Both the position numbers and the translations under genes were made by a program. From Candidatus Heimdallarchaeota archaeon (lineage in GTDB: Archaea > Asgardarchaeota > Heimdallarchaeia > Hodarchaeales > Hodarchaeaceae): a stretch of 46,569 nucleotides of DNA. The notes under the pieces were generated by a model that saw only the letters and a list, made by a program, of their open reading frames with translations, was not told the origin of the DNA and did no database searches. Below are positions 2,850-39,300 of the stretch, in pieces (position 1 is the stretch's first letter; each line of letters opens with the position of its first letter). The stretch is taken from the NCBI GenBank assembly GCA_019057635.1, contig DXJL01000101.1, positions 1 through 46,569 on the forward strand, in the 5' to 3' direction.

Positions 2850-5336
2850 TTAACTTGCGCGAAGGCGAGAGTTAATGGCCAATCTTTCTAGAGTCATCTT
2901 TATTGTATCCTTTACCTTATCATTTTTCTGCATGTAATCTTCTAAGTAGACCTTAACTTCATCAGGGTTATTCAACCCAGCTACAGATACAATATTGCCA
3001 ATCACACCTTCTAAATGCATCGGGTGGAGTTTTTCTAATTCAACTATATTATTCTTGAACCATTCCCACAGATGATCAACTACAAACAAATTTCTCGCTG
3101 AGATCATAATTGGAAAAATCTTGTTTTTACTTGGAACTTTTTCAATGACATAATCAAGTGCATTTAACTGGAGATCCTTATCTTCAAAACTACCAATTGC
3201 GCGAAGAATATTAATCGTTTCAGGTTCAGGTATGTCTGCACTTTCGAGTTTTTTAATTAAAATAGCAAATGATGAGGGAACTTGTGCAGCTCCAATACGC
3301 GTTATACTAGATAATAGATCAGGGTGAATAGATTTACCTTCAAGATATTCATTGAATTTTTGGCGGCCAAATTCGGCGACTCCTTCATCATTGAAAAGAT
3401 AACTTGAAATTAACAGCGAACTACGCAGATTTGTAACTTGGTGCGGTTCATCTTCTTTGGGCTCATAGCCAATATGTTCTAGGACTTTATAGAATGCTTT
3501 AAAGCCAATTGCACTAATCCTTTCTCTTCGTGATTCGACAACTTGAAACGCATGAACTAGATTTGCACTCATAGCAACTAAGGGGAGATAATTGTCTTCT
3601 TCGGTAAAATATTCCATGAAATCCAAATAATCGTCGATAGAATAGTCCTCACTTCTCACAAACGCATAAAGATCATTATGCAAACCATAACGATCTCTTG
3701 GGGATAAAACTTTCTGTTTAACTAATTTTCCAAGCGCATGGAGATTTTCCTTTTCATAAATCACTCGGTAAAAACCTGATTGTTCAAAATTTAATTTGTG
3801 AGCGGTTACGCCATCTGGTAAGGAAATAACCATTGATTTTTCATTAAATACGAATCTTTGTGTATCAATCAATTGAGTTTCTCTGTAAAAGGAAATAGTA
3901 AGAGGGATCATCCACACGTTAGCTGACGAATTGGGGAGGTATGAAAAACGACTTTGCTCGAGAGATAAATGATCTCCAACCTTGTGAACAGTTATTAAGG
4001 GGTATCCTGGTTGGTAAATCCAAGTTTTCATCATTTCGGATATAGGTTCACCTGTTGCCTCTTCTATCCCCTGCCAATATGCACTACTTTCTACACATTC
4101 AAATTTATGATTATTCAAAAAATATTGAATACCTTTCTTAAACTTATCTTCACCTAGGTACCCTTGAATCATTTGTAATACCGCTCCACCTTTTGAATAG
4201 ATAATTGGAGCAGTTGCAGCCGTTATTTTAGTATTTTCGCCCTTTCCTGGAAGCTCAATTGGAAATGTTTCTAATAAGGAGTCCCGTTCAAACGCTGAGT
4301 CAACTTCTCCAGCCAGAAAGCCTTCCCAGATCTGCCATTCAGGATGGTAGTAATCTGCAATAGCGTATCCAAAAAGCGTGGCGAATGATTCATTTAACCA
4401 TATATATTTCCATTCTACAGGACTGACTAAATTCCCAAACCATTGATGAGCTACCTCATGTGCGATTACTTCTGCAATTCTCTCAATTCCCGCTTTTGAT
4501 GTGATTCCAGGATATACAAGAAGAATATTCTCTCGATATGTAATAGCAGCATAATTTTCCATTGCTCCAAAAGCAAAATCAGGTACTGCGATTTGATCCA
4601 ACTTGTCAATGGGGAATTTGATACCAGTATACTTTTCCCCAAATTCGATACTTTTTCTACCGAAATCCAACGCATAGTCAGCAAATTGTGTTTTTCCAGG
4701 AGTAGTGGCAATTCGATATCGTATAGCTTCCGAGGATGCTTCAAGATACTCAAAATCTCCGATACCAAAGAAAAGAAGATAGCTCGACATTTTAGGGGTT
4801 CTTTTAAATTTTATTAGTTTTTTGTCATTTTTTAAGTCAGTTTCCTCTTCAACACGAGTATTAGCTATTCCGGAGAACTTTTTATCAATAATAAATTCGA
4901 TATTGAACGTCGCTTTCATCGAAGGATGATCAAAACAGGGAAAGGCTTGACGAGCGTGATCTTCTTCGAACTGGGTGACTGCAATAAACTTCTCCTCCTC
5001 ATTTTCAATATATTTACTTCGATAAAGTCCCACTAATTTGTCATTAATAAGACCCATATATTCTATCTTAAGAACTAAATCACTTTTAACTTCTGGTAAG
5101 TCTATTGAAAGAATCTGTTTTTTCGGATTGAAACTAAATTGGCATTCAATGAATTTCTTTTCCTTTTTCACTTGACATTTCCAAACTGCAAGTTCATGTG
5201 CATTTAACTCTATTTTATCAATTGGTTCAGTTGCTCTAATACTTATTTCAGTTAAGCCAGAAAAATAAAAATTTTCGAAATTTGGTTCTAATCTTATAGA
5301 ATAATGACTGGGTCTAATTTTGGCCATGGTTTTCAC
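2850..5336 (-). CDS. M1 family aminopeptidase (tricorn-interacting factor F2/F3 or puromycin-sensitive type)
   Basis: GAMEN exopeptidase motif, HEVAHQWFGNLV...WLNESFAT zinc motif, YSKGGAVL, C-terminal ERAP1-like region. Confidence 0.95.
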   Translation of the reverse strand: MKTMAKIRPSHYSIRLEPNFENFYFSGLTEISIRATEPIDKIELNAHELAVWKCQVKKEKKFIECQFSFNPKKQILSIDLPEVKSDLVLKIEYMGLINDKLVGLYRSKYIENEEEKFIAVTQFEEDHARQAFPCFDHPSMKATFNIEFIIDKKFSGIANTRVEEETDLKNDKKLIKFKRTPKMSSYLLFFGIGDFEYLEASSEAIRYRIATTPGKTQFADYALDFGRKSIEFGEKYTGIKFPIDKLDQIAVPDFAFGAMENYAAITYRENILLVYPGITSKAGIERIAEVIAHEVAHQWFGNLVSPVEWKYIWLNESFATLFGYAIADYYHPEWQIWEGFLAGEVDSAFERDSLLETFPIELPGKGENTKITAATAPIIYSKGGAVLQMIQGYLGEDKFKKGIQYFLNNHKFECVESSAYWQGIEEATGEPISEMMKTWIYQPGYPLITVHKVGDHLSLEQSRFSYLPNSSANVWMIPLTISFYRETQLIDTQRFVFNEKSMVISLPDGVTAHKLNFEQSGFYRVIYEKENLHALGKLVKQKVLSPRDRYGLHNDLYAFVRSEDYSIDDYLDFMEYFTEEDNYLPLVAMSANLVHAFQVVESRRERISAIGFKAFYKVLEHIGYEPKEDEPHQVTNLRSSLLISSYLFNDEGVAEFGRQKFNEYLEGKSIHPDLLSSITRIGAAQVPSSFAILIKKLESADIPEPETINILRAIGSFEDKDLQLNALDYVIEKVPSKNKIFPIMISARNLFVVDHLWEWFKNNIVELEKLHPMHLEGVIGNIVSVAGLNNPDEVKVYLEDYMQKNDKVKDTIKMTLERLAINSRLRAS

Positions 5337-5445
5337 TTCCGAGTTATTATCTTGTTATTTGGACTGAATTAAATCAATTCTAAAATTATTGTGTTAATTA
5401 TTCCAGATGTTGAAGATGATATTTTTTTTATCTTAAATTAGTTCT

Positions 5446-5468
5446 ATGACTAAATTTGTCAGACAACT
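5446..5468. repeat. Inverted repeat, tnpB 3' side
   Basis: ATGACTAAATTTGTCAGACAACT, perfect inverted partner of 6833-6855. Confidence 0.95.
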
Positions 5469-5469
5469 A

Positions 5470-5620
5470 GTGAAAAACTAGTTCTGGACAGGATGAGTCA
5501 CACATCCACTATCCGGCAGGAGAGCAATACTAGAAGGTATGCGTTCCTTTGGGACTACTTGGGGAGCAGAGTGAACCCGCTGAAGAATATTACATGCAGC
5601 ATTGTAATCGGCATTTAGTT
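5470..5620 (-). ncRNA. Putative omegaRNA/reRNA scaffold overlapping the tnpB 3' end (5' boundary is a guess)
   Basis: Hairpin GGATAGTGGATG-TGTGACT-CATCCTGTCC (5514-5486) in the last codons, followed by a TTTTTCAC right-end-like motif ending at 5470. The position matches known TnpB guide RNAs. Confidence 0.45.
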
Positions 5621-6731
5621 GAACTCCACACATTTGGCAACAAAAAGATCCCCGTGATCGACGATTTTTTTTAGCCAGATAACCGCACTTACTGCATTGC
5701 TGGGACGTGTACGCTTCGTTGACACGGATGACCGTTATACCAACTAGTTTAGCTTTATACTCAAGCATTTGTACGAATTAAAGAAAAGGAAGCTGGACAA
5801 ATGATTGATTGGTCCGTTTTCCAAGGTTGCAGTGTTGTTTCCACCTCGGATTATAGCCAATAACAAGGGTCTGAATATTCTGCGTTAAACAATACTTAAT
5901 AATTCGGCGAGAGGTTTGATGAAAGAAATCGCGAAGGCGGTTTGTTCGGAGACGGTGGAGGCGTAGCATCCGTCGAGTCAGCAGCTGCTGGTTGCAGGTG
6001 GTCGCTAAGGAGCGATAGTGCGCGAGCTGCTTGTTATACCACTGATTGATGGTCTTTACCACCCCGCCTTTGACGAGTAAGCCGTCTGACGTAGTTACGA
6101 GGTTGGTAAGCCCAAGATCTATCCCCATAGCGCGGGAAGGAGAATCCGCGGAGGGAAAGGCTAGCTCTTGCACTTCATACAGTATTTCGACCATAAAGCG
6201 ATCGTAATAGGGGACCAGACGTGCCCCCACACAGGTGTCGGCCGTTAAGGGAAGCGATCCGACTGGAAAGGTCGGAAACCCGCGTCTCGTGAGATTTTTC
6301 GCAAATAGAATCTGGTTGTTCCGAATTCGGACCCGAGGGCGGGGAAAATTGAGCATATGCAAAGCATCCTTAGGCTTATACCGTGGGATTCGTGGCCGGG
6401 TGTGAAATTTGGTGGGATCCTTTTTCCAAGCTTTTAGGCCGTTAAAAAAGCTCCGCCAAGTTTGTTCTATTTGCCGTAAGACTTGTTGGGGTAAATAACT
6501 ATCCGAAATAGCTTTTAACGTGAGATAGACAGGTTCATGTTTAAGGCGATGATATAACGCAGTATATTGCACCCAGCTTCCTGTTCTGAAGAATTCTTGG
6601 CAGACCTCATAGGTGGCACGATTATACAAATTTTTAGCACAGGTACACAACTCCGTAAAAATGGGCCGAGGTTTCATTTGCATACGGATAGCTAATTGTG
6701 GTTGAGGATGTTTTTTGGTGCGCATTCCCAC
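5478..6731 (-). pseudogene. tnpB: RNA-guided endonuclease TnpB (IS200/IS605, IS1341-like) interrupted by one in-frame TAA at 5778-5780
   Basis: KNLYNRATY N-terminus, RuvC-I GIDLG, LVIGYN, VNEAYTSQQC, zinc finger CSKC...CQMC, RuvC-III NADYNAACNI. The two ORFs share one frame: ...CCT TTT CTT TAA TTC GTA CAA ATG CTT GAG. Confidence 0.92.
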
Positions 6732-6782
6732 TCTTTTCTAGATTTTTCCCTCCTATAAGTTTGTAACCGAGAGAGAGCGGTG

Positions 6783-6810
6783 AAAATGACGAATATGACG
6801 AAAATGAACG
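6783..6810. repeat. Three tandem ~9-bp direct repeats near the element end
   Basis: AAAATGACG AATATGACG AAAATGAACG. Confidence 0.75.
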
Positions 6811-6832
6811 CTTTTTTCTTCGAAAGATTCTA

Positions 6833-6855
6833 AGTTGTCTGACAAATTTAGTCAT
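6833..6855. repeat. Inverted repeat, tnpB 5' side
   Basis: AGTTGTCTGACAAATTTAGTCAT, perfect inverted partner of 5446-5468. Confidence 0.95.
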
Positions 6856-6859
6856 GTTT

Positions 6860-7261
6860 TTAATTTTTTTTAATCATATCTCTACCTCTCATCCATTCTA
6901 TAGTTCTTTCTACTCCTGTTTCAAAATCGACAATTGGTTTAATACCGAGGTTTTCCTTAGCTTTCTGATTCATATAATTACGGCTAGTAGGAATTTTCTT
7001 CAGTGCATTTGGAACATAAGGATAGCCAAAATTCCGCCAGCGATAAAATCTAAGGAGGAATGGCCAAAAAGGTCGTGCAAGTAATAAAGGGAAAGGGGAA
7101 ATGAAAAGAGGTTTTCTTCTGCCAAGTTTTTCCGCAATAGTAGTAAAAATTTGTCGATAAGTCTGAGGTTCATCGGAAGCCAGAATATAGATTTCTCCAA
7201 TTGTTTGCTCAGGATGTAGGATTATTTTAATGAATACTGGAGATTGAAAATCGATTAGTTC
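6860..7261 (-). pseudogene. C-terminal remnant of an NAD-dependent epimerase/dehydratase (extended SDR); no usable start codon, not in ORF track
   Basis: Open frame translates ...HPEQTIGEIYILASDEPQTYRQIFTTIAEKLGRRKP...YMNQKAKENLGIKPIVDFETGVERTIEWMRGRDMIKKN*, a typical extended-SDR C-terminus. The Rossmann and YxxxK parts are absent. Confidence 0.8.
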
Positions 7262-7948
7262 TTAGGTTTCTACGACATCAAGAACCTCTTTCAACGATAT
7301 TGGTAATTTAAAATCGACTACTGAATCCAATTCTGACTCAGAAATTAACTTTAGTTTGTCAGACAGTCGATAATAAATTGGATCTAGAACCTCGGATTTT
7401 CCTCTCGTTTCGGGATATTGAGGATTTATACTACAACATCCGCCAGGTAGGATAGATAAACCATAATACCCCCACTTCTTAGATAAACTTACTACTTCTT
7501 CCTTATTATATCCAATTAACGGCCTAAGCGCTAGAATATTGATCTTAGATGTTACCATTGGCAAATTATCAAGTGTTTGACTTGCTTGTTCCCCCATTAT
7601 TTCACCTGTGATAACGGCCTCAGCTCCTCGCTGATTTGCGAATTGTTGGGCCTTATAAAACATCTGCATTCGGCAAAATAAGCAAGTTTGTTGAATTTCT
7701 CGTCCTTCTAAGCCATTAAGAATTTTTTCTTGTGTTCCACCGTGTGTCATAATTGAGAGACTTAATGGAGTTGAACTATTTCGACTCGCAATCTGATTTG
7801 CCAAGGCCACGACTTTTTCCAAAGTACCTGGGGAATGAAAAGGATAATTATGATAGTGTAGAAGTAATGGTTGGAAACCATTTTTTATCGCAATCTGAGC
7901 TGCTACAGGGCTATCTATACCACCAGATATCAAACATACAGCTTTCAT
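7262..7948 (-). CDS. thiI: ThiI-like PP-loop sulfurtransferase, catalytic domain only (no THUMP)
   Basis: LISGGIDSPVA PP-loop, TCLFCRMQM, ITGEIMGEQASQTLDNL, LRPLIGYNKEEV, GGCC. Likely start is ATG 7948 rather than 8008. Confidence 0.8.
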   Translation of the reverse strand: MKAVCLISGGIDSPVAAQIAIKNGFQPLLLHYHNYPFHSPGTLEKVVALANQIASRNSSTPLSLSIMTHGGTQEKILNGLEGREIQQTCLFCRMQMFYKAQQFANQRGAEAVITGEIMGEQASQTLDNLPMVTSKINILALRPLIGYNKEEVVSLSKKWGYYGLSILPGGCCSINPQYPETRGKSEVLDPIYYRLSDKLKLISESELDSVVDFKLPISLKEVLDVVET

Positions 7949-8190
7949 GTGAGGCAGAATCCAAGAATAATACTCAAAACCGTAATATGCTATATTATCG
8001 CAACACAAATTTCAAACATAAGGAATTATTGGTAGGAAAACGAGACCAATCCAGTGATAAATTTAGAAAGAATAATGTATACAATCAATGAAAATGAATT
8101 TCATTTTTGTTTATAGAATGGAATGAAATTTCAGTCACTAGACGAAATTAAGTTCAAATTTTTAAATAGTTCTGAAGGAGAAGTGCGTTC

Positions 8191-8708: not shown

Positions 8709-9191
8709 GTGACAAATTTGGGAAGTAATTCATTAGAAATAACCACTGAAAAGAAAACTTACCATTTCCCTTTAGATAGATATTATTTTACACAGGAACC
8801 AGGCCATATATGGTTGAAAATCGATGGCGAATTATTAAACGTAGGTTTTGACGATTTCGGACAATCTCAAGGTCCTATTCTTCATATTCGAACTCGTCCT
8901 GCAGGTAAAACTTATTCCCAAGGAAAAGCTTTTGGTACCGTTGAAACAAACAAATTTATTGGACAATTACGTTTTCCTGTATCTGGATCCATTGTTGAAA
9001 CCAATTCCGAAGTTTTTGATGATCCTCAATTAATAAATAATGCACCTTATGATCAATGGATAGTAAAAATTAGGCCTACAAACTTAGAATTAGATATGAA
9101 ATCAGAATATATTATTGCAATCGGTGATCGAGATCGACTCGAAAAATATATCGTAGCAGAACTCATAAAATATGAAGATCCGCCAATCTAA
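8709..9191 (+). CDS. GcvH-like lipoyl-carrier protein (divergent paralog)
   Basis: HIWLK, VGFDDFGQ, GTVETNKFIG (lipoyl Lys), PVSGSIVETN, INNAPYDQWIVKI. Confidence 0.85.
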   Translation: MTNLGSNSLEITTEKKTYHFPLDRYYFTQEPGHIWLKIDGELLNVGFDDFGQSQGPILHIRTRPAGKTYSQGKAFGTVETNKFIGQLRFPVSGSIVETNSEVFDDPQLINNAPYDQWIVKIRPTNLELDMKSEYIIAIGDRDRLEKYIVAELIKYEDPPI

Positions 9192-10032: not shown

Positions 10033-10202
10033 TTTCAGGTTCCAACGAGTGATCCTTATATTTGAGAAATTTTTTTGCTATAAATTTAAGCTCTACTAGG
10101 TGGGAAGATGGTGAGAATCAACACTCATAATATGATTGTGACATCGTTCCTTTAATTTCAAAGTTGGTACCTTTACTTAAGGGAATCATAGGAGATACAA
10201 CT

Positions 10203-10727
10203 TTGGCCATTGATAATGTAGCAACCAAACTCATTCTAATAGGTGACGGTAGAGTAGGAAAAACATCACTATGCTCTCATCTTCGAACTAAAACCATTCC
10301 TGGACAATATAACTTGACAGTGGGATTAAATATTGAAGTCCACGAAACATTGATGAAAGGTACATTAGTAAAATTAGTCTTATGGGACTTGGCAGGACAA
10401 CACAGGTTTGGTTGTATAAGAAGTGATTTTTACATGGGAGCCAGAGTTGCATTGATCGTTTTTGATGTTCAGAATAGGGGTTCATTCTTTGATGTCAAGC
10501 ATTGGATTAGAGAATTAAAACGGCATAGTCCAAATACACCTTTTATTCTTGTAGGGAATAAAATGGATCTTCACAAACGTGAAGTTTCAACAGAAGAAGC
10601 TAAACGAGTTGCACAAGAATTTTCCGCCTTTTACTTTGAAACTAGTGCGCTAGAAGGAGAAAATGTCGAAGAATTATTCCAATTGGCTACTCGTCTTGCA
10701 TTACAAGGAACCGCGGTTGCTTATTAA
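10203..10727 (+). CDS. Rab-like small GTPase (Ras superfamily)
   Basis: G1 GDGRVGKTS, G2 YNLTVG, G3 WDLAGQ, G4 NKMD, G5 ETSA. Likely TTG start at 10203 after GGAG (ORF track starts at 10164). Confidence 0.92.
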   Translation: MAIDNVATKLILIGDGRVGKTSLCSHLRTKTIPGQYNLTVGLNIEVHETLMKGTLVKLVLWDLAGQHRFGCIRSDFYMGARVALIVFDVQNRGSFFDVKHWIRELKRHSPNTPFILVGNKMDLHKREVSTEEAKRVAQEFSAFYFETSALEGENVEELFQLATRLALQGTAVAY

Positions 10728-11815: not shown

Positions 11816-13270
11816 ATGAAAAGATCCTCAATTCAGGAGGTAATACCTGCTTTGCATTCGATTCAGCACTTATCTCACCCATTTCTGCCTCAAACCGAAT
11901 CTCAAATTAAGACTATGTTAAAAACTATGAATGTTTCATCGATTGAAGACCTTTACTCAATAATACCCAAGGAATTACGCTTTGAAGGAAAATTAAACCT
12001 CCCAAAAACCCACTCAGAACAAGAAACTTTGCGAAAGATTCAATCTGTTTTGCAGAAAAACGTAACTACAGACGATTTAATCTCATTTCTAGGTGCGGGA
12101 ATATATCCACACTTCATTCCTTCAGTAGTTCCCTCAATCGTGAATAGATCAGAATTTATTACTTCATATACACCTTATGCACCAGAAGTCTCACAAGGTA
12201 TGCTCCAGGGATTATGGGAATATCAATCAATGATAGCAGAATTAACCCAGCTAGACCTCGTAAATTCATCAATGTACGACTTCGCCACCACTTTAGGTGA
12301 AGCTGCTTTAATGTCTACTCGTGCAACGAAAAAAAATACGTTCCTTGTTCCAGAATACATTCAACCAGAGAGATTGAATACTCTTATAACCTATACTACC
12401 GGCCCTAAATTGAAAATAGTAACGTATCCCTGTGATAAGCTAACTGGTCAAGCTGATTTAGAAAAGTTAACCAGTATTATCGAATTGAAACGAAATCAGA
12501 TAAGTGGAGTTTACATTGAAAATCCTAACTTCTGGGGGGTGATTGAGGAGGAAATAGTCCAGATTGGAGAATTAACCCATGATCAGAACTCATTATTCAT
12601 TATAGGTTTTGATCCAATTTCCTTAGGATTACTGAGATCGCCAGGAGAATTGGGAGCTGATATCGCAATCGGAGACGGACAACCGTTAGGCCTTCCAATG
12701 AATTTCGGGGGCCCATTATTAGGTTTATTTGCCGTTAAAAATGATAAAAAATTAGTAAGAGCAATGCCAGGTAGAATAATTGGATTAACCACAGAAATAA
12801 ATTCTTCCAATAGGGCTTTTACAATGACACTACAAACTCGTGAGCAGCATATTCGACGAGAAAGAGCCACATCCAATATATGCACAAATAACGCCTTATG
12901 CGCCCTTGCATCAACTGTGTATTTGAGTTTAATAGGCCCCCATGGATTAAAATCATTGGCTGAAACTTCTCTAGCAAAAGCTCACCATTTGGCAGAGCGA
13001 CTTTCAATGTTTGATGAAATCAGCTCCCCCCACTTTACTGGTCCCTTTTTTAAAGAATTTGTCTTTACATTGAATTCTCCCTCACTAATGGACTCATTCA
13101 CTAAATTTATGAGAACGAGAAACATAATTCCCGGCCTTTCCTTAATTAAGGACTTTCCATCTTTGGGATCGAGTTATTTAGCAAGTGTTACAGAAATGAC
13201 AACGAGCTCAGATATGGAGCTATTTCTTGACACAGTTCTTGAATTTTTTAGGACACATGGAGGGAAATAA
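11816..13270 (+). CDS. gcvPA: Glycine dehydrogenase (decarboxylating) subunit 1
   Basis: FLGAGIYPH, TSYTPYAPEVSQGMLQ, NSSMYD, FGGPLLG, LQTREQHIRRERATSNICTN. The start may be slightly downstream. Confidence 0.97.
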   Translation: MKRSSIQEVIPALHSIQHLSHPFLPQTESQIKTMLKTMNVSSIEDLYSIIPKELRFEGKLNLPKTHSEQETLRKIQSVLQKNVTTDDLISFLGAGIYPHFIPSVVPSIVNRSEFITSYTPYAPEVSQGMLQGLWEYQSMIAELTQLDLVNSSMYDFATTLGEAALMSTRATKKNTFLVPEYIQPERLNTLITYTTGPKLKIVTYPCDKLTGQADLEKLTSIIELKRNQISGVYIENPNFWGVIEEEIVQIGELTHDQNSLFIIGFDPISLGLLRSPGELGADIAIGDGQPLGLPMNFGGPLLGLFAVKNDKKLVRAMPGRIIGLTTEINSSNRAFTMTLQTREQHIRRERATSNICTNNALCALASTVYLSLIGPHGLKSLAETSLAKAHHLAERLSMFDEISSPHFTGPFFKEFVFTLNSPSLMDSFTKFMRTRNIIPGLSLIKDFPSLGSSYLASVTEMTTSSDMELFLDTVLEFFRTHGGK

Positions 13271-13271
13271 A

Positions 13272-14798
13272 GTGTTTAAACAAAGTAAATGGCCAAAAAC
13301 ACTGATTTTCGAGAAATCAACTCCTGGACGAATTGGATATCAGGTTCCAGAATTATCATCTGAAGAAGAAAAAGTGCTAGAGAAGGCAAAACGTACGATT
13401 TCAAGTGATTTATTAAGGGAGAATTCCCCTAATCTTCCTGAAGTCAGTGAACTTGAGGTAGTACGACATTTTACTCGCTTATCTCAAATGACCTATGGAG
13501 TAGACTCTGGTTTTTATCCTCTAGGAAGCTGTACCATGAAATACAATCCGAAAATTTGTGATACTGCAGCTTCCATGATTGACGCTCAAAATATTCATCC
13601 CTACCAACCAGAGGATACAATTCAAGGTTCATTACAAATAATGTATGAATTAGCAAAATGGCTAGCGGAGCTTTCAGGAATGGCGGGCGTAACCTTACAA
13701 CCTGCCGCTGGTGCTCATGGAGAATATACGGGTATTATGATTCTTAGGAAATACCATGAATCTCAAAATAACCTAGCAATTAAAAATGAAATAATCGTAC
13801 CTGATAGTGCTCATGGAACAAATCCTGCAACTGTTTCAATGTGCGGGTTCAAAACCATAGTAATACCATCTAACAATGATGGCTGCGTTGATATTGATGC
13901 TCTTAGATCTTCTGTCACAAATAAGACAGCAGGTATGATGTTAACTAATCCAAACACTCTAGGAATTTTTGAACCAAATATTAAGGAAATAACTGACATC
14001 ATCCATGATGTGGATGGATTAATGTATTATGATGGTGCTAATTTCAACGCTATCATGGGTAAAGTTCGACCAGGTGATATGGGATTTGATATTGTACATT
14101 TTAATATTCATAAGACTTTCGCCACACCTCATGGAGGTGGAGGCCCTGGTGCTGGTCCAGTAGGAGTAGTATCACATCTAATACCATTCTTACCTGTACC
14201 ATCGGTTGCTTACAATTCTACAAGTGATTTTTATTATTTGAATTATAACCATAAACAAACAATTGGCAAAGTTAGAAGCTATTTTGGAAATTTCTCAATC
14301 CTGCTGCGAGCTTACACCTATATTCTCAGGTTAGGTCAAACTGGTTTAACTCGAGTTTCTGAAATGGCTAATCTTAATGCAAACTATATGAAAGCTCAAT
14401 GTGCCCGAATTGACGGATTTTCTGTGCCTTATGGTGAGAATTCTTCGTGTATGCACGAATTCGTCCTTTCAGCAAAAAAATTGTACAAAGAAACAGAGAT
14501 TTCGGCCCTAGACATCTCAAAATATCTTCTTGATAATGGTCTTCACCCACCTACAGTGTATTTTCCATTAATTGTTCCTGAGGCACTTATGATAGAACCA
14601 ACGGAGACTGAACCTAAAGAAATCATTGATGACTTTATACAGGTAATTAGAAACATTTCTAAACTGGCATATTCAGGAAAAAAAGAAGACATACAAAATG
14701 CCCCAATAAATACATCTGTTGGAAGAATTGATGATGTTAAGGCTGCAAGAGATCCAATCATAAGCTATCGAATGTTGAAAAAGCAGAAAAAAAATTAA
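13272..14798 (+). CDS. gcvPB: Glycine dehydrogenase (decarboxylating) subunit 2
   Basis: YPLGSCTMKYNP, QPAAGAHGE, SAHGTNPAT, HFNIHKTFATPHGGGGPGAGP (PLP Lys), MIEPTETE. Likely GTG start at 13272, right after the gcvPA stop. Confidence 0.97.
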   Translation: MFKQSKWPKTLIFEKSTPGRIGYQVPELSSEEEKVLEKAKRTISSDLLRENSPNLPEVSELEVVRHFTRLSQMTYGVDSGFYPLGSCTMKYNPKICDTAASMIDAQNIHPYQPEDTIQGSLQIMYELAKWLAELSGMAGVTLQPAAGAHGEYTGIMILRKYHESQNNLAIKNEIIVPDSAHGTNPATVSMCGFKTIVIPSNNDGCVDIDALRSSVTNKTAGMMLTNPNTLGIFEPNIKEITDIIHDVDGLMYYDGANFNAIMGKVRPGDMGFDIVHFNIHKTFATPHGGGGPGAGPVGVVSHLIPFLPVPSVAYNSTSDFYYLNYNHKQTIGKVRSYFGNFSILLRAYTYILRLGQTGLTRVSEMANLNANYMKAQCARIDGFSVPYGENSSCMHEFVLSAKKLYKETEISALDISKYLLDNGLHPPTVYFPLIVPEALMIEPTETEPKEIIDDFIQVIRNISKLAYSGKKEDIQNAPINTSVGRIDDVKAARDPIISYRMLKKQKKN

Positions 14799-15513: not shown

Positions 15514-15648
15514 TGCGGGGGGTGAGATTTGAACTCACGAACGCCTATGCGACTGGATCCTAAGTCCAGCTCCTTTAGTCGGCTTTCAATGATAGCACAT
15601 CATCGAAATTTCAATTTGATGCCTTTGACCTGGCTGGGAAACCCCCGC
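15514..15648 (-). tRNA. tRNA-Leu(UAG) with a 50-nt intron at non-canonical position 21/22 (intron 15575-15624)
   Basis: Spliced: GCGGGGGTTTCCCAGCCAGGTCAA|AGGAGCTGGACTTAGGATCCAGTCGCATAGGCGTTCGTGAGTTCAAATCTCACCCCCCGCA. Anticodon arm CTGGA-CTTAGGA-TCCAG, long variable arm, relaxed BHB (GGTC/GACT helix, AAA bulges). Confidence 0.92.
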
Positions 15649-16298: not shown

Positions 16299-16329
16299 CT
16301 ATATTACCTCATATTTTATATTGAGAGAA

Positions 16330-16404
16330 TGGGCCGGAGCAGATTTGAACTGCCGACTTCCACCTTGTAAGGGTGGCGTCATAACCGGGCTAGACCACCG
16401 GCCC
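16330..16404 (-). tRNA. tRNA-Val(UAC)
   Basis: GGGCCGGTGGTCTAGCCCGGTTATGACGCCACCCTTACAAGGTGGAAGTCGGCAGTTCAAATCTGCTCCGGCCCA. Anticodon arm CCACC-CTTACAA-GGTGG. Confidence 0.97.
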
Positions 16405-16501
16405 AGACGAAAAGCTACTCAGATGTAAGGTAATTTTAAATTTATTTAATATTTTTGAGAAGTCTTTTTAATTCAAAATTCTCTCATATTTTTGAGGTAT
16501 C

Positions 16502-19437: not shown

Positions 19438-19571
19438 CGGGCGCAGAGGGACTTGAACCCCCGACCAACTGGTTTCTCTAATAGGATTCGTGAATACTTA
19501 TGCTACAAATAGTATATTTACTGAATCCTTTTTTAAGAGCCAGCCGCTCTACCTTGCTGAGCTATGCGCCC
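19438..19571 (-). tRNA. tRNA-Lys(CUU) with a 60-nt intron at canonical 37/38 (intron 19474-19533)
   Basis: Spliced: GGGCGCATAGCTCAGCAAGGTAGAGCGGCTGGCTCTTA|ACCAGTTGGTCGGGGGTTCAAGTCCCTCTGCGCCCG. BHB with CTCT/AGAG helix and TAA/AAA bulges. Confidence 0.95.
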
Positions 19572-22108: not shown

Positions 22109-22498
22109 TTAATCTTCAGAAATTTGGATGGTATATTCTTCGGGGGTCATCAATTTACTCCAATCAGTTTCCAGATCCGATGGTTTTATTTTTACAAGCC
22201 ATGCTGAATATGGATCTTGATTAACCTTTTCGGGAGCATCTACCACTGCTTCATTAATCTCAATTATTTCACCACTTATTGGACAGAGTAAATCAGAGAC
22301 AGCTTTTACACTTTCAATCGACCCTATTACATCTTTGAAATTAAATGTCTCTCCTATTTCAGGTAGTTCAATATAGACTACATCTTTAAGTGTTTTTTGA
22401 GCAAAATCTGTTACTCCTACTAACACGTATTCTCCGTCACGCTTTGCCCAATCATGTTCTGGTAAATATTTAAACTCTGGTAAAACCTTGTAAGACAT
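22109..22498 (-). CDS. gcvH: Glycine cleavage system H protein
   Basis: EHDW, VGVTDFAQ, IESVKAVSD lipoyl motif, VNQDPYSAWLVKI. Confidence 0.96.
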   Translation of the reverse strand: MSYKVLPEFKYLPEHDWAKRDGEYVLVGVTDFAQKTLKDVVYIELPEIGETFNFKDVIGSIESVKAVSDLLCPISGEIIEINEAVVDAPEKVNQDPYSAWLVKIKPSDLETDWSKLMTPEEYTIQISED

Positions 22499-33654: not shown

Positions 33655-34986
33655 CTAAACTATTTTTATATATTCATAAGCCTTAATTGTGGTCTCAAAT
33701 CCGTAATGAATATTCTGGAATTCTTTTCGGAATTCTGATACTTCCTGTGCAACAATTAGCGGATCCTTTTTGTCCACAATTACAGATTTAAAGAAATCTG
33801 CAATTGTAATCATATCTGGTTCTTTCATTCCAAGTCTAGTAACTTCTTGGGATCCGATTCGAATCCCTCCGGGATTTAAATAATTACGTTTTTCTAAGAT
33901 GTCCCAAGGTAATAAATTTCTATTCGCAACAATATGAGCCTTTTCTAGCCTTTGTTCAACATCTGCACCCAAACCGATTGTATCTTGGAAGTTGGTGATA
34001 TCAACTAACAATGTGTGTGATTCGGTGAACCCTTTATCAGGACATACTACCTTGAATCCACTCTCATATAGTGCTTGTCCTAAGGCCTTTGCGTTGAGAA
34101 TAATTTGTTTTGCATACGCTTCACCAAATTTTAAAAATTCCGCAGCTGCTACCGCAAGACCAGCCACATGCATTAAATGATGATTTGATGTCATTCCAGG
34201 AAATGCAGCCGATTTGATCCTTTCTGCAAGTTCATCTTGAGACGCTATTACAATTCCTTTCTGAGGACCAGGAAAAGTTTTATGCGTTGACATGGTCATT
34301 GTATCTGTTCCTTCCTTTATGGGATCTTGGAATTGTTTTCCCGCTATCAATCCTGCTACATGGGCTGCATCGTAATTCACATGAGCTCCTATTTCATGAG
34401 CAACAGGAATAAGTTCCTCAAGCGGGTGAGGAAAAAGGAAAACACTTGCGCCAAACTGAACAAGCTTTGGTTCTTTTTCACGGAATGCTTTTATTGCCGC
34501 ATCAACATCAATATTTAATCCATATCGATCAAAAGGTATATAGTCAACATCTAACCTTGAAACAGCACCTGCTGTTCCTCCAATAAATGAACCTGACTTC
34601 GCAGAAAGAGGGCCAGAGCTGATATGCCCTCCTACAGGTATTGAAATCGCCATCATTTTATCATGAGCTTTTGTAAAAGCAGTATAGACAGTTAGGTTGG
34701 CTACAACACCTGATATAGGTCGAGCGTCTATAAAAGGAGCCTTATATAGCTGTTTCAAGAGTTTTAAAGTTAATTCTTCCATATCATCGAAATATTCGTT
34801 CCCTGGATAGACTCGTTCCCCTATCCATCCTTCTGCATATCTATGTGCTAAATCAGAAATCGCTACTTCTCGTACTGCAGGGCTTGTTAAATTTTCTGAA
34901 GCAATTAAGGGGATTGCATTATTCCAATACTCATGATGAGCTTTGAGAATACCTCGGATTTTTCTAAATGTTGGATCATCGGTCAA
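33655..34986 (-). CDS. glyA: Serine hydroxymethyltransferase (archaeal type)
   Basis: LIASEN, RYAEG, GGHIS, YDAAHVAGLIAG, STHKTFPGPQKG, SNHH, GGIRIGS. Confidence 0.97.
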   Translation of the reverse strand: MTDDPTFRKIRGILKAHHEYWNNAIPLIASENLTSPAVREVAISDLAHRYAEGWIGERVYPGNEYFDDMEELTLKLLKQLYKAPFIDARPISGVVANLTVYTAFTKAHDKMMAISIPVGGHISSGPLSAKSGSFIGGTAGAVSRLDVDYIPFDRYGLNIDVDAAIKAFREKEPKLVQFGASVFLFPHPLEELIPVAHEIGAHVNYDAAHVAGLIAGKQFQDPIKEGTDTMTMSTHKTFPGPQKGIVIASQDELAERIKSAAFPGMTSNHHLMHVAGLAVAAAEFLKFGEAYAKQIILNAKALGQALYESGFKVVCPDKGFTESHTLLVDITNFQDTIGLGADVEQRLEKAHIVANRNLLPWDILEKRNYLNPGGIRIGSQEVTRLGMKEPDMITIADFFKSVIVDKKDPLIVAQEVSEFRKEFQNIHYGFETTIKAYEYIKIV

Positions 34987-35181
34987 TTTAATTCCACACG
35001 CTTTCTACTGTTTATAAAATAAAATTGACAATAGTTTTAAAATAAATTTCTCACCCTTCTTTCAATTATTACAAAGTTCATTAATTCATGAGAAATAACT
35101 TGTTTTCAGATTATTATTCTCCTTTTACAGCCACATGTAGGCTTGAAACGTAGAAAAATTCAAAAAATGTTGTGAAAACAA

Positions 35182-36330
35182 ATGCAAACACAATTATATG
35201 CTTGGCATGCAGAAAATGGCGATATCGTCGATTTTGCAGGCTTTCAAATGCCTGTAATGTATACATCCATAATTGAGGAACATATGGCGGTTAGAAATGC
35301 TGTTGGTTTGTTTGATGTTTCTCATATGGGACGAATGTGGATTCAAGGAAAGGATTCTGAAAAATTTCTCAACGCTCTGGTGCCAAGAGACCTTTCGAAA
35401 ACCAATGTAGGGAGAGCATCATATACTTTCTTGCTCAATGAACTTGGAGGCTTTCGAGATGATTTAGTCTTTGAACATATTGAAGAAAATAAGTGGTTGC
35501 TGGTTTGGAATGCAGGAAATTATGAAAAGATCCTACACTGGATTAAATTATTATCAGCCTTGATTAATCACTTTTCCAAATTGGACATCGAAATAATTAA
35601 TATTTCATCTTCATCTGCGATGTATGCCTTACAAGGTCCGAAGGCAGAGGCTGTGTTAAAACGAGTTATACCAGAGAATGCAACCCCTCCTTCTTCTTGG
35701 AATGTTTTACAAACAACAATTGATAGCTGTGATGTAATTGTCTCAGGTACAGGGTATACTGGAGAGTCAGGCTATGAAATTATAGTATTTAATACATCAA
35801 ATGAAGAGAACACAAATGCGGTCAATGTCTGGACGAAATTACTTGTAGAAGGTAAGCAATTTAACATAAAACCCTGTGGGTTGGGAGCACGCGATTCTCT
35901 AAGATTGGAAGCTGGTTATCATCTCTATGGAAATGATATATCAGAATGTATTAATCCACTTGAAGCGGACTTGTTTTTTCCTCCGTTTATTCATATAAAC
36001 AAATCTTCCTTTATAGGTAAGCCCCAACTTGAAATGTTGAAAGAAAAACCTCTTCAAAAGATTCGAGTAGGCTTAATTTCTATGAAAAGAGGACCTAGTC
36101 CCCGTTCAGGATTAAAATTGTTCCAAGGGGAAAAAGAAATAGGTGTTATTTCATCTGGTGGTTTTTCTCCCATTTTAAACATTGGTATTGGAATGGGTTA
36201 CATACTACCAGAGCACAATGTTGAAAATGGAATATTACAATTCCAAGTCCGAAATAAGATGCATGATGTAAAAATACAGAAATATCCTCTTTATGATCCT
36301 GATATGTATGGAAAATCAAGGAAAGATTGA
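35182..36330 (+). CDS. gcvT: Glycine cleavage aminomethyltransferase T
   Basis: FAGFQMPVMY, EHMAVR, LFDVSHMG, ALQGPKA, TGYTGESGYE, GLGARDSLRLEAG. Confidence 0.97.
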   Translation: MQTQLYAWHAENGDIVDFAGFQMPVMYTSIIEEHMAVRNAVGLFDVSHMGRMWIQGKDSEKFLNALVPRDLSKTNVGRASYTFLLNELGGFRDDLVFEHIEENKWLLVWNAGNYEKILHWIKLLSALINHFSKLDIEIINISSSSAMYALQGPKAEAVLKRVIPENATPPSSWNVLQTTIDSCDVIVSGTGYTGESGYEIIVFNTSNEENTNAVNVWTKLLVEGKQFNIKPCGLGARDSLRLEAGYHLYGNDISECINPLEADLFFPPFIHINKSSFIGKPQLEMLKEKPLQKIRVGLISMKRGPSPRSGLKLFQGEKEIGVISSGGFSPILNIGIGMGYILPEHNVENGILQFQVRNKMHDVKIQKYPLYDPDMYGKSRKD

Positions 36331-36333
36331 GCA

Positions 36334-39300
36334 CTACTTCTTTTTCTTCTTTTGCTTGCCTTTCTTTCCAGATTCCCCAGTTATTGATCCTAATTCAGAT
36401 AAAGCGTCTGAAAATAAATCTATTAAATCAGGTGGTTTCACTTCAGCTGGTTTTGGAGTTTGTGGTTCAGAGATTTCCTCGTAGGACACTTCTGGAATTC
36501 CAAAGATATCTTGTGTGTCACCAGATTCGTCTTCAACAAGGGCATCCACAACAGAGTCTAAAGAACTGGTTATGTCGGTATCGAACAGACTTTTCGTTTC
36601 TTTAGTTGGTTCTGGTTCGTGTCTAGGAGGTAACACTCTTTCTGTATCTACCAGCGCCATTTCTAATTCTTCAAGGTCAGGTAGACTTTGAAGCTGTTTC
36701 TTCTTCTCACTTTCCAAATCAGGTTCTAATTGAAGCGACTTTAATTGTGTGGGTTTTACTACTTCTTCTTTGGGTTTATAGGATGATTTCAGAGTACTTA
36801 AATCTGGAGTTCCAGACGTAACTTCAACTATAGTAGGAGATATTACTGGTTTAGGTTCACTGATTTTATCTGGTGAAGGAGTAGTTGCTCCTTTTCTTAA
36901 TAAACGCCCAAAAGTATCGACTTCCCACTCTTCCTCACTAGCAGAGGGTTCTTGTTCAGACAGTGATCGTAACACATCAGCTCCCCTCTTTTTGGAATCT
37001 TCTCGAGAGCTAAACAGTGTGGTTACTTCATTATCGGATAGTGTTACACCTTCTTTGCCTTGTTGGCTAACTTCAGGAAATAATTCTTCTTCAACTGATA
37101 ATGATACTTGTGAGACCTCTTCAGGGGAAGGATCAAGTGAAAATAAGCTCGAAACTTCATCATCACTCAGTATGGTGGATACTTCGGCCTCATCCTGTTT
37201 CGGAGGGATTTCCAAAACTTCACTGCTTATTTGCGGTTGCCCTTTTAAAGATGGTTTGTCTTCCAATAACTGAGAGATTTGAGGTTCTGGTTCTTGAATT
37301 ACCTTTGGAGTTTCCACTTGTTCTTGTAGTGGTGATTCTGGTTTGATTCCTTTAATAAAATCGACAATCTCTTTATCTTCTTCTTCGGTATCGGGCTCAA
37401 TGACTTTTTCTAAAAGGGGTTCTTCACTCGCTGTGATTAACTCCGCTGTGTCAACCAAAGTTGGAGTTACTGCGTCAACTTCGATTAATTGTCTGTCCTT
37501 TACTGATTTTGACTTCAAAAAGTTGCTACGTTCTTCTGAAAGGTGTTTAAAGTCCTTTTTAAATTTCTTGGGCTGTATACCCAATTCCTCAATATTATTT
37601 CTAATTTTCTTTGCTTTTTCAGTATCGTTTATGTCAGCAACGTAATTTAACATGAAAACTAGAATTCCACCCATATCCTCTGAACGGTTTATCATATTGG
37701 CTAATTTACTCATATATTCTAGATATCTAGATACAAGATTAAGATTATCGGTTGAAATTGCCACGGTAATTATCTCACAACAATTTCTGAAGAGTTCATC
37801 CAGATCCTCCAATTCTTCCAGTTTTTCTATTGTTTGTTGAAAAGCTGCTAGCACTGAGTCGTCTGAAATAGTGCAAAGGTATTTAGTGAGTAAAACTAGT
37901 AGTTGTGCTTCGTGTTTTTTGGCCTTATATTTACTGCAAATGTATATTCCTCTCTCAAATGTACGAATGGCTCTTTTTGAGGATGAGTATTGAGTTGCGA
38001 GATTATTATAGATAGTAACTACTCCATCAAAATCATTTGCTCCTCGTAGATAATCTGCAGCAAGATAAGCATACTCTGAGGCTAGATCAGGATTCTCAAA
38101 CGCTACCATTTGTGCAAATTTATCACAGACTTTTGCCCCTAGGTGATTTTTCTCTGCAGATAGTTCAGGGTTAGTTGTAATATGTTGAATCAACTTATCT
38201 GCAAACTCTCTTGCTTTTTCAATGTTAGATTTTCGAACTAAACTTTGAACGAAGTCCAGAGATTTATTTAAAAGATCCGAAAATGGTAAACTTGATCTTT
38301 CTGACAATATTGACATTAATTTCATTGCCTCAACAGCAAAACCAAACTCTGTCAATTTATTTGTGTATTTATATACCAAGTTATCTCCTAGATCTACAAG
38401 AGCACTTCCATACACAAGGTTAACTAATGAAATTATACCATCTGCACTGTCAAAGGTTAATGAAGAAGATTCAATTAGTTGATCAAAGAATTTTTCAGAA
38501 TACTTTATGTATTCCTCGAGTGGAGGAGAAAGAACCTCATTCACAACCGTAAGTAGCGCAACATCAGGATATTTTGTTAATAACGGATCAACGACTTTCT
38601 TTGTGATTTTCTTGAAGTCATCTTTCTCGCGATGAATTTCTATTATCTTGCGAAATACTTGAAGAGAAGGCTCTTTGACATTTTTAAAAGTAATATTGAA
38701 AATCTTATGAAGAAATTCAAGTGCTTTATCTGATTTATTGTCTTCCTCAAAGAGAGTTGCGACATTAAGAGCGAATTTGATAGCAGATAAATAGTCTTCG
38801 TTATCTAGAGTAATTTTGGCATATTCTTTTATCGATTGGATAGCGATTTTGTATTGTTGATGAGTTTTACCGAATCTAAATATTAGATCGGTCATTTTAG
38901 CTGCGTCTTCAAACTGGTCAAATTCTAAAAATCTATTTCTCATTTTTCCGAGATATTTGATGACATCAGGAATGCTGCCAGAGCTCTCTATATAACGAGC
39001 ATTTTGGACACTAAAAATGTATGCGTCTTGAAACATGCTCTGTTCTAATTGCCTATCAATGATGTTAGTCACAATTTCTATACATTTCTTATATTCTTCT
39101 TTTGCCTCATATTCTTTTAGTATGATGTCAGTAATTTTTTGTGATAATTCAACTGAATAATCAAGTAGGACTTCTTGATATTTCACCAAGACTTCAAGCG
39201 CTCCTTGATCATCTCCCATCCGTCTATAAGCTTCAGCAATCTCAAAAACGTATTTTTGGACAAGATCAACTCTTTGAGTACTTTCCAAAAGATGGTCAAC

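Follow-up and report, generated by a model that had tools for sequence, protein, structure and literature searches.

The DNA analyzed here (hereafter the window, meaning the whole stretch of 46,569 nucleotides) is contig DXJL01000101.1 of a Candidatus Heimdallarchaeota archaeon (GenBank assembly GCA_019057635.1). At 5446-6855 it contains a unit of 1,410 bp, arms included, that is delimited by an inverted repeat and has tnpB (minus strand, 5478-6731) as its sole gene. With somewhat more confidence than doubt, the unit is taken to be a copy of a non-autonomous TnpB/omega-RNA (OMEGA) family of the IS607 lineage, specific to Heimdall/Hodarchaeales, with unusually symmetric ends of its own and mobilized in trans.

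The 23-mer ATGACTAAATTTGTCAGACAACT was located at 5446-5468 on the plus strand and its reverse complement at 6833-6855. These were its only two copies in the window, where no further copy appeared when as many as 3 mismatches were allowed; a 23-mer match arose in 0 of 100 dinucleotide-preserving shuffles. It was the sole long inverted repeat within 5000-7400, extending to 34 nt at 85%. The 23-bp inverted repeat is real and is not a product of chance. The G+C content of the unit was 45.3%, peaking at 52-54%, vs 35.7% in the rest of the window. The gene was identified as tnpB using Pfam and NCBIfam, and none of the 34 other open reading frames (ORFs) scanned in the window encoded a transposase or recombinase. 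The initial annotation, which had described exact 23-bp repeats around a GC-rich unit with tnpB as its only gene and no transposase, was correct on these points. The features of the element and its edges are as follows, in gene orientation.

6856..6860, minus: 5' flank, predicted target-adjacent motif (TAM) or target motif, proposed from four copies
6833..6855, minus: left-end (LE) terminal arm, an exact inverted copy of the right arm, with homologous termini in the related elements L001-L003
6732..6832, minus: LE non-coding region upstream of tnpB, a variable spacer and then a block conserved in the alignment of the window copy with L001 and L002
5478..6731, minus: tnpB, a pseudogene of 417 codons closed by a TAG stop; it has the RuvC residues D205 (RuvC-I), E339 (alternative glutamate) and D375 (RuvC-III) and a C4 zinc finger
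5778..5780, minus: in-frame nonsense codon TAA at codon 318, splitting the ORF into 317-aa and 96-aa pieces
5446..5600, minus: putative omega-RNA scaffold that takes in the 3' end of tnpB as well as the right end (hairpin A, 5491-5507; hairpin B, 5465-5483)
5446..5468, minus: right-end (RE) terminal arm, with the palindromic core TTGTC-N-GACAA and terminal GTCAT
5430..5445, minus: predicted guide segment, the host DNA directly 3' of the RE, by analogy with characterized TnpB systems

The conserved LE block carried two direct TTCGTCAT motifs (6786-6802), which share GTCAT with the right terminus and are candidate protein-binding sites. A third match to the degenerate core, TTTGTCNGNCA, was located at 7355-7365 (plus strand), inside a ThiI-like gene; about 0.35 such matches were expected by chance on both strands (a rough estimate), and this one was taken as chance.

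The tnpB product matched OrfB_IS605 (1.5e-20) and Cas12f1-like_TNB (2.7e-22) in Pfam, and scored 224 bits against a cut-off of 100 with the NCBIfam model guided_TnpB (NF040570, RNA-guided endonuclease TnpB family). The identification of the gene in the initial annotation thus stood, while its frame, broken by a TAA at codon 318 that had been overlooked, was not intact. In 34 aligned relatives this codon specified K, Q, R or N, and at the DNA level it was AAG in L001, CAA in L002 and AAC in L003. Because of the in-frame TAA the window copy is a pseudogene, produced by a single substitution. The alternative glutamate, zinc finger and RuvC-III are absent from the part of the gene upstream of the TAA. 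Because of the nonsense codon the copy cannot make TnpB and is at best a passive passenger.

Residues D205, E339 and D375 were invariant in alignments of 35 and 12 sequences. At the position of the canonical RuvC-II glutamate the window protein has G292, which aligned to the E of QMEDL in Cas12f (9nzq), and E339 lies six residues ahead of the first zinc-finger cysteine (E-x6-C). All four residues (D205, G292, E339 and D375) were invariant in 12/12 sequences drawn from across the fetched clades, including the IS607-linked L004, L007 and L010. As read from these alignments, the active site is the rearranged, alternative-glutamate form of RuvC described previously (PMC10691335; PMC10711439; publications are cited throughout for the portions of their text that were available). 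The initial annotation had also raised a Fanzor-like arrangement. The criterion published for pro-Fanzors combines DPG in RuvC-I with the alternative glutamate (PMC10711439), and the window protein departs from the first part, its RuvC-I motif, GIDLG, having DLG and not DPG; by this criterion the protein is not Fanzor-like. Among 30 PDB matches the best were Cas12f and TnpB (about 1e-22); a giant-virus 'TnpB-like protein L79' matched at 8e-15, and none of the 30 chains was named Fanzor.

Conserved termini of related elements

A search for relatives of the tnpB product gave 230 proteins at E<=1e-3 among 2,560 candidates, the best of which (78-85% identity) were proteins from metagenome-assembled genomes (MAGs) named by their source as Hodarchaeales or Heimdallarchaeota. 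A pattern scan of genome contigs yielded at least 597 pattern matches and at least 532 confirmed relatives and returned 80 loci, from which the window's own genome was absent. Three of these loci, in different Heimdall/Hodarchaeales MAGs, were aligned with the window copy at the DNA level: L001 (74% protein identity, complete), L002 (84%, its 3' end cut by the contig end so that the RE is missing) and L003 (54%, complete). Their respective neighbors were genes for an M28 peptidase, an M29 peptidase and a GNAT acetyltransferase. The four copies are similar from (A)AC|ATGA.. through ..GTCAT|, outside which the flanks do not align. The LE termini begin at 2903 in L001, 4868 in L002 and 4852 in L003. 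The termini, on the gene strand, are listed below.

Window copy: left end ATGACTAAATTTGTCAGACAACT; right end AGTTGTCTGACAAATTTAGTCAT
L001: left end ATGACCGAGTTTGTCTGACAAC; right end AGTTGGCTGACAAATACAGTCAT
L002: left end ATGATCAAATTTGTCCGACAACT; right end missing (contig end)
L003: left end ATAGTCTGTTTTGTCTGACAGCT; right end identical to that of the window copy

When the LE was compared with the reverse complement of the RE, 23/23 positions agreed in the window copy and 17/22 in L001 (binomial p 4e-7 to 6e-5). The figure for L003 was 14/23 overall and 14/16 for the inner part, the outer 9 nt of its LE not mirroring the RE. The RE arm itself was identical between the window copy and L003 (23/23) at an overall DNA identity of 60%, and agreed at 20/23 positions with that of L001. 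The LE arm, its core excepted, had drifted at about the average rate. The core TTGTC-N-GACAA, itself a palindrome, lay 9-10 nt from each terminus in every copy, and among the fetched loci was found in L001-L003 only. In these alignments the strictly conserved feature is the palindromic site near each end together with the terminal ATG/CAT, and the perfect 23-bp repeat of the window is its most extended form.

Because homologous termini accompany L001-L003 amid unrelated flanks, the arms are to be regarded as the element's own ends and not as a split host palindrome. The initial annotation had proposed looking for copies running from repeat to repeat with different flanks; L001-L003 carry homologous termini between unrelated genes. 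The window ORF stops at a conserved PVQN motif, past which the frame stays open in 8/34 aligned relatives, with C-termini such as ..RVV; judged from the out-of-frame reading of the window, the extra codons would lie in the right arm. The G+C content of the four copies was 44-51%, vs 34-37% for their hosts. Because all four are GC-richer than their hosts, the excess is a trait of the family, not an assembly chimera, and is not by itself evidence of recent transfer.

More distant relatives bear on how the symmetry arose. In L011, L012 and L015 (40-41% identity, Asgard, solo tnpB) the ends consist of a small palindrome, a few nucleotides and GTCAT, as in the window, and an inverted copy of the right end was present in the left end of none of the three. 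Flank inverted repeats in relatives of 37-43% identity (L004, L005, L011, L012, L015, L027, L048) were AT-rich, low-scoring matches only. The IS607-type L004 had a short inverted motif, AACCTATA / TATAGGTT, at its ends. Because relatives at about 40% identity share the design of the right end and do so without an inverted left copy, the symmetry is derived within the window's clade, the left arm probably being a later inverted copy of the ancestral right arm. Since relatives that have no terminal inverted repeat (TIR) carry a right end homologous to the right arm, the TIR sequence comes from the TnpB element itself and was not imported with a foreign transposon.

Two of these loci (L011:3248-4804 and L015:3206-4813, minus strand) encode, upstream of the solo tnpB and in divergent orientation, a product of about 520-535 aa that matches LAGLIDADG_3 and helix-turn-helix families and is reminiscent of the 'WhiA/meganuclease-like' cargo of some serine-associated TnpB branches (PMC10691335).

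Putative omega RNA and proposed mode of mobilization

Hairpin A, of the form GG-N-UG...C-N'-CC, lies just upstream of the right arm within the conserved stretch coding for ..DSGCVTHPVQN. In eight sequences from three clades its middle pair was AU in 3, UA in 2, GC in 2 and CG in 1, and was thus paired in 8/8. A longer stem in the region encoding a variable part of the protein showed compensatory changes among the window copy, L001 and L003, with 11/55 predicted pairs doubly changed. Folding of single sequences gave three or four consecutive hairpins per copy (z-scores -1.1 to -3.2). Rfam returned nothing in the element, either at the gathering threshold on the whole window or at E<=1 on 5350-6950. 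The right arm looks like the 3' end of an omega-RNA scaffold that would end at the right terminus. The 3' flanks of the window copy, L001 and L003, which occupy the predicted guide position, are unrelated, and by analogy with characterized systems the host DNA 3' of the RE is the predicted guide. The 5' flank ends in AAC in the window copy, L001 and L002 and in ACC in L003, and in these four copies is the predicted TAM.

Transposase genes were sought among 95 neighbor ORFs over the 80 loci, comprising 39 of the 64 computed at ten loci and 56 of the 78 at the other 70; ORFs overlapping tnpB, antisense overlaps and more distant small ORFs were left out. A gene of the resolvase family adjoined tnpB in L004, L005, L007, L008, L010 and L068, and the three tested (L004, L007 and L010) scored above the NCBIfam cut-off for IS607 transposases. 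Y1, DDE and Cas1 domains were each found in none of the 95, and every transposase gene beside a relative was an IS607-type serine recombinase. A quick maximum-likelihood tree with midpoint root was constructed, with support given by the Shimodaira-Hasegawa-like approximate likelihood ratio test (SH-aLRT). The four TIR copies formed a clade (98) within a 9-row clade of Asgard solo TnpBs (99). The sister of the latter was L004+L005, which bear an IS607 TnpA (88), and the enclosing 21-row clade (100) also included IS607 elements of Ktedonobacter.

No target duplication was detected in the window copy or L001 when the boundaries were shifted, the junctions sharing AT/CAT only. The dinucleotide AT was present at the junctions of all four LEs and three REs. 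At 4867-4869 in L002 the CAT of the LE junction is the complement of the likely ATG start of the adjacent M29 peptidase gene, which was not destroyed, and this suggests that the junction AT derives from the target. In L003 a 10-nt string, CATAGTCTGT, occurred at 4849-4858 (outer LE) and again at 6297-6306, straddling the RE junction; the outer 7 nt of its LE copy the 3' flank rather than mirror the RE. Either a target duplication or a scar left by repair could explain this direct repeat.

The preferred explanation, that of a trans-mobilized IS607-lineage family, can be set out as follows. The symmetry of the ends arose in this clade, whose ancestor had asymmetric ends, and the left arm is an inverted right arm. 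An element with no transposase would have to be mobilized in trans, and we infer that the most likely mover is a serine recombinase of the IS607 type, favored because such enzymes adjoin relatives and because target duplications were not seen in the window copy or L001. At each end the recombinase would recognize the palindromic core, strand exchange would take place at the junction AT, and a circular intermediate would join the two arms into a symmetric crossover site. In the intact relatives the right terminus would also be the end of the omega RNA, host DNA next to it would serve as guide, and any activity of the guided TnpB would consist in cutting the emptied site, by which the element would be restored. 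A bolder form of this explanation is given only limited credence: that an IS607-derived lineage confined to Heimdall/Hodarchaeales turned asymmetric ends into true TIRs by copying the terminus encoding the guide RNA leftwards, and so reached an independent prokaryotic layout of the Fanzor type. If true, the TIR would lie within the guide-RNA scaffold, and an opening to a different, symmetric-end transposition chemistry would be possible. Heimdall/Hodarchaeales are the closest archaeal relatives of eukaryotes.

Several observations weigh against mobilization by an IS607-type enzyme. The direct repeat in L003 is a possible target duplication. No transposase gene lay near members of the TIR clade (among 34 window ORFs, and within 3 kb in L001-L003), and the link to serine recombinases rests on relatives of 36-39% identity in a quick tree, at a support of 88, below the starring threshold of 95. 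IS607 elements have been reported to end in GG and insert at GG (PMC6188088; PMC13565253), and the termini here (ATGA.., ..GTCAT) have no GG, the flanks ending in AAC or ACC. The ends of serine-associated TnpBs are called asymmetric in a published census, which places inverted terminal repeats in DDE-associated branches (PMC10691335). The comparison covers four copies, one of them with no RE. The outer 9 nt of the LE are poorly conserved (L003), and constraint may act on the palindromic core and not on a TIR in the strict sense. Support for the RNA part of the proposal is indirect, with fold z-scores of -1.1 to -3.2 and no match to an Rfam family.

Capture of TnpB by a non-autonomous cut-and-paste transposon, of DDE type or otherwise TIR-recognizing, would give prokaryotes an equivalent of the Fanzor arrangement and had been one of the two readings in the initial annotation. 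It is considered doubtful here. The termini of the window are symmetric and perfect and do not have the GG typical of IS607, and inverted terminal repeats were reported in all six DDE-associated TnpB branches, as were solo TnpBs sharing the ends of autonomous copies (PMC10691335). A 2-bp duplication, which is indistinguishable from a crossover dinucleotide, might account for the AT seen at both junctions, and the L003 junctions bear a direct repeat of 7-10 nt; the latter, however, does not abut a symmetric terminus, and neither the window copy nor L001 has a duplication outside the arms. DDE domains were found in 0/95 neighbor ORFs and 0/34 window ORFs, the neighboring transposases being of the IS607 type, and the right arm, homologous to the right end of TIR-less relatives, is native to the TnpB lineage, so that the repeat was not imported. 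Capture by a foreign element, as first proposed, is therefore not favored. Its premise that IS607 elements have no terminal inverted repeats was also too strong, as descriptions of IS607 include an imperfect inverted repeat close to the ends together with short direct motifs (PMC6188088). An IS200/IS605 element of the IS1341 type, moved by a Y1 HUH transposase that would recognize the palindromic core as a subterminal DNA hairpin, is judged unlikely. The same short palindrome stands 9-10 nt from each terminus, in L001 and L003 its two copies agree in their center base when read along one strand, and AAC in the 5' flank of 3/4 copies would suit a short fixed target; archaeal IS605-type elements are known with palindromes near both termini, sometimes identical, and with no duplications (PMC3119063). 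The stem, however, would be only 4-5 bp, the outer arms (9 nt) are inverted and not direct in the window copy, L001 and L002, Y1_Tnp was found in 0/95 neighbor ORFs of the 80 loci, and the transposases neighboring the relatives are serine recombinases.

The other reading in the initial annotation placed an IS1341-type insertion within the loop of a host palindrome, so that the arms would be the halves of a host palindromic repeat of about 46 bp split at its center. A perfect repeat with no duplication is the outcome expected of such an event, and weak inverted similarity continues into the adjoining flanks (34 nt at 85%). This candidate was nevertheless rejected as very improbable: in three further genomes, and in different contexts, the element is again accompanied by its arms, which coincide with the limits of similarity to the window, and the window holds no other copy of the 23-mer at <=3 mismatches. 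The right arm is identical at 23/23 positions in a relative of 60% overall DNA identity, and appears to be partly coding in the 8/34 relatives whose ORF runs past PVQN. An assembly artefact, in which a foreign, GC-richer piece was joined at repeated k-mers, would account for the jump in composition at the arms, and the assembly is of the metagenome type. It is scarcely credible, as three independent assemblies show the same architecture and G+C excess over the flanks, and as the junctions fall in intergenic DNA with the neighboring ORFs intact.

Chromosomal setting

The window is ordinary chromosome, encoding glycine-cleavage genes, a Ras-family GTPase, translin and FttA. The element is bordered by the following genes.

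2850-5336, minus: M1 aminopeptidase gene, its start 109 bp from the element, which lies upstream
6863-7198, minus: ORF fragment of 112 codons, with no start, its stop codon intact and 4 nt from the element

The fragment sits between the element and the ThiI-like gene (7262-8008). It had been called an epimerase in the initial annotation, but the 112 codons gave no Pfam match, even at E<=10, and no NCBIfam match; the fragment looks like the 3' remnant of a truncated gene.

The small GTPase at 10164-10727 (plus strand; Pfam Ras, 3.5e-46) fits an Asgard host. The glycine-cleavage genes (two H-protein genes, the P1 and P2 subunits and T protein) and that for serine hydroxymethyltransferase were dispersed at 8709-9191, 11816-14798, 22109-22498 and 33655-36330. 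Rfam gave tRNA matches of 134-135 nt at 15514-15648 and 19438-19571 (minus strand), presumably intron-containing archaeal tRNAs. ARAGORN called a tRNA-Val at 16329-16405 only, and neither of these two. An ORF of 1,865 aa at 36334-41931 (minus strand) matched no Pfam family at E<=1e-5.

For the annotation of the window the result is modest: the unit is a decayed insertion sequence, and the GC-rich patch reflects its family and is not evidence of recent foreign DNA. The intact relatives (81-85% identical) would be compact nucleases of about 420 aa with an alternative-glutamate site, and the well-defined boundary between scaffold and guide would make them convenient for mapping TAM and guide.

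Comparison with known systems

IS607 elements and their solo-tnpB derivatives share with the window element a TnpB rearranged at RuvC-II, with G at the canonical glutamate and E339 (12/12). IS607 also resembles the window element in the absence of target duplication (window copy and L001, with L003 ambiguous), in inverted similarity near the ends, in short direct motifs in the LE and in the position of tnpB near the right end. The window element differs in having no tnpA and no GG at termini or target, and its repeat is terminal, 23 bp long and perfect, whereas that of IS607 is subterminal and imperfect. The zinc-finger cysteines are kept in the window TnpB and lost in the IS607-linked relatives.

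The DDE-associated branches, for example the IS630-linked DDE-6 (Altae-Tran et al. 2023, PMC10691335), likewise have symmetric ends around a prokaryotic TnpB, with solo copies presumed to be moved in trans. Unlike in these, no DDE gene and no duplication of TA or other sequence were seen with the window element, and its right arm appears to come from the ancestral right end of the TnpB element. The Asgard Cas1-associated TnpB transposons (Cas1H-Asgard-1/-2, PMC10691335) are similar in their Asgard host and their repeat-flanked TnpB loci. Cas1 was found beside none of the relatives scanned (95 neighbor ORFs). The motif GTTCACTCA, reported downstream of tnpB in the Asgard Cas1 elements, gave 8 matches in the window (<=1 mismatch) vs 10.8 expected, and none downstream of the right end.

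Prokaryotic TnpBs bounded by TIRs and linked to DDE transposases or Asgard Cas1 have thus already been published (PMC10691335; PMC13565253). The available text of a paper on Heimdallarchaeum mobile elements (PMC8813620) contains no TnpB, IS605, IS607 or 'inverted repeat'. A description of a Hodarchaeales TnpB family with these ends was not found in the literature searched, although the supplement to the census (PMC10691335) was outside the search and may list the family.

Fanzors, of eukaryotes and giant viruses, share the alternative RuvC-II glutamate with the window TnpB. The 3' end of the guide-RNA scaffold and the TIR overlap in Fanzor1 (PMC10711439), and so would the putative scaffold and the TIR in the window element. 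The window element differs from Fanzors in having DLG and not DPG, an archaeal host and no duplication. If its symmetry is functional, the family shows how the ends of a TnpB element, and perhaps its transposase along with them, can be remodeled with no loss of the right end from which the guide RNA is encoded, and the eukaryotic Fanzor elements must have gone through such a step as well.

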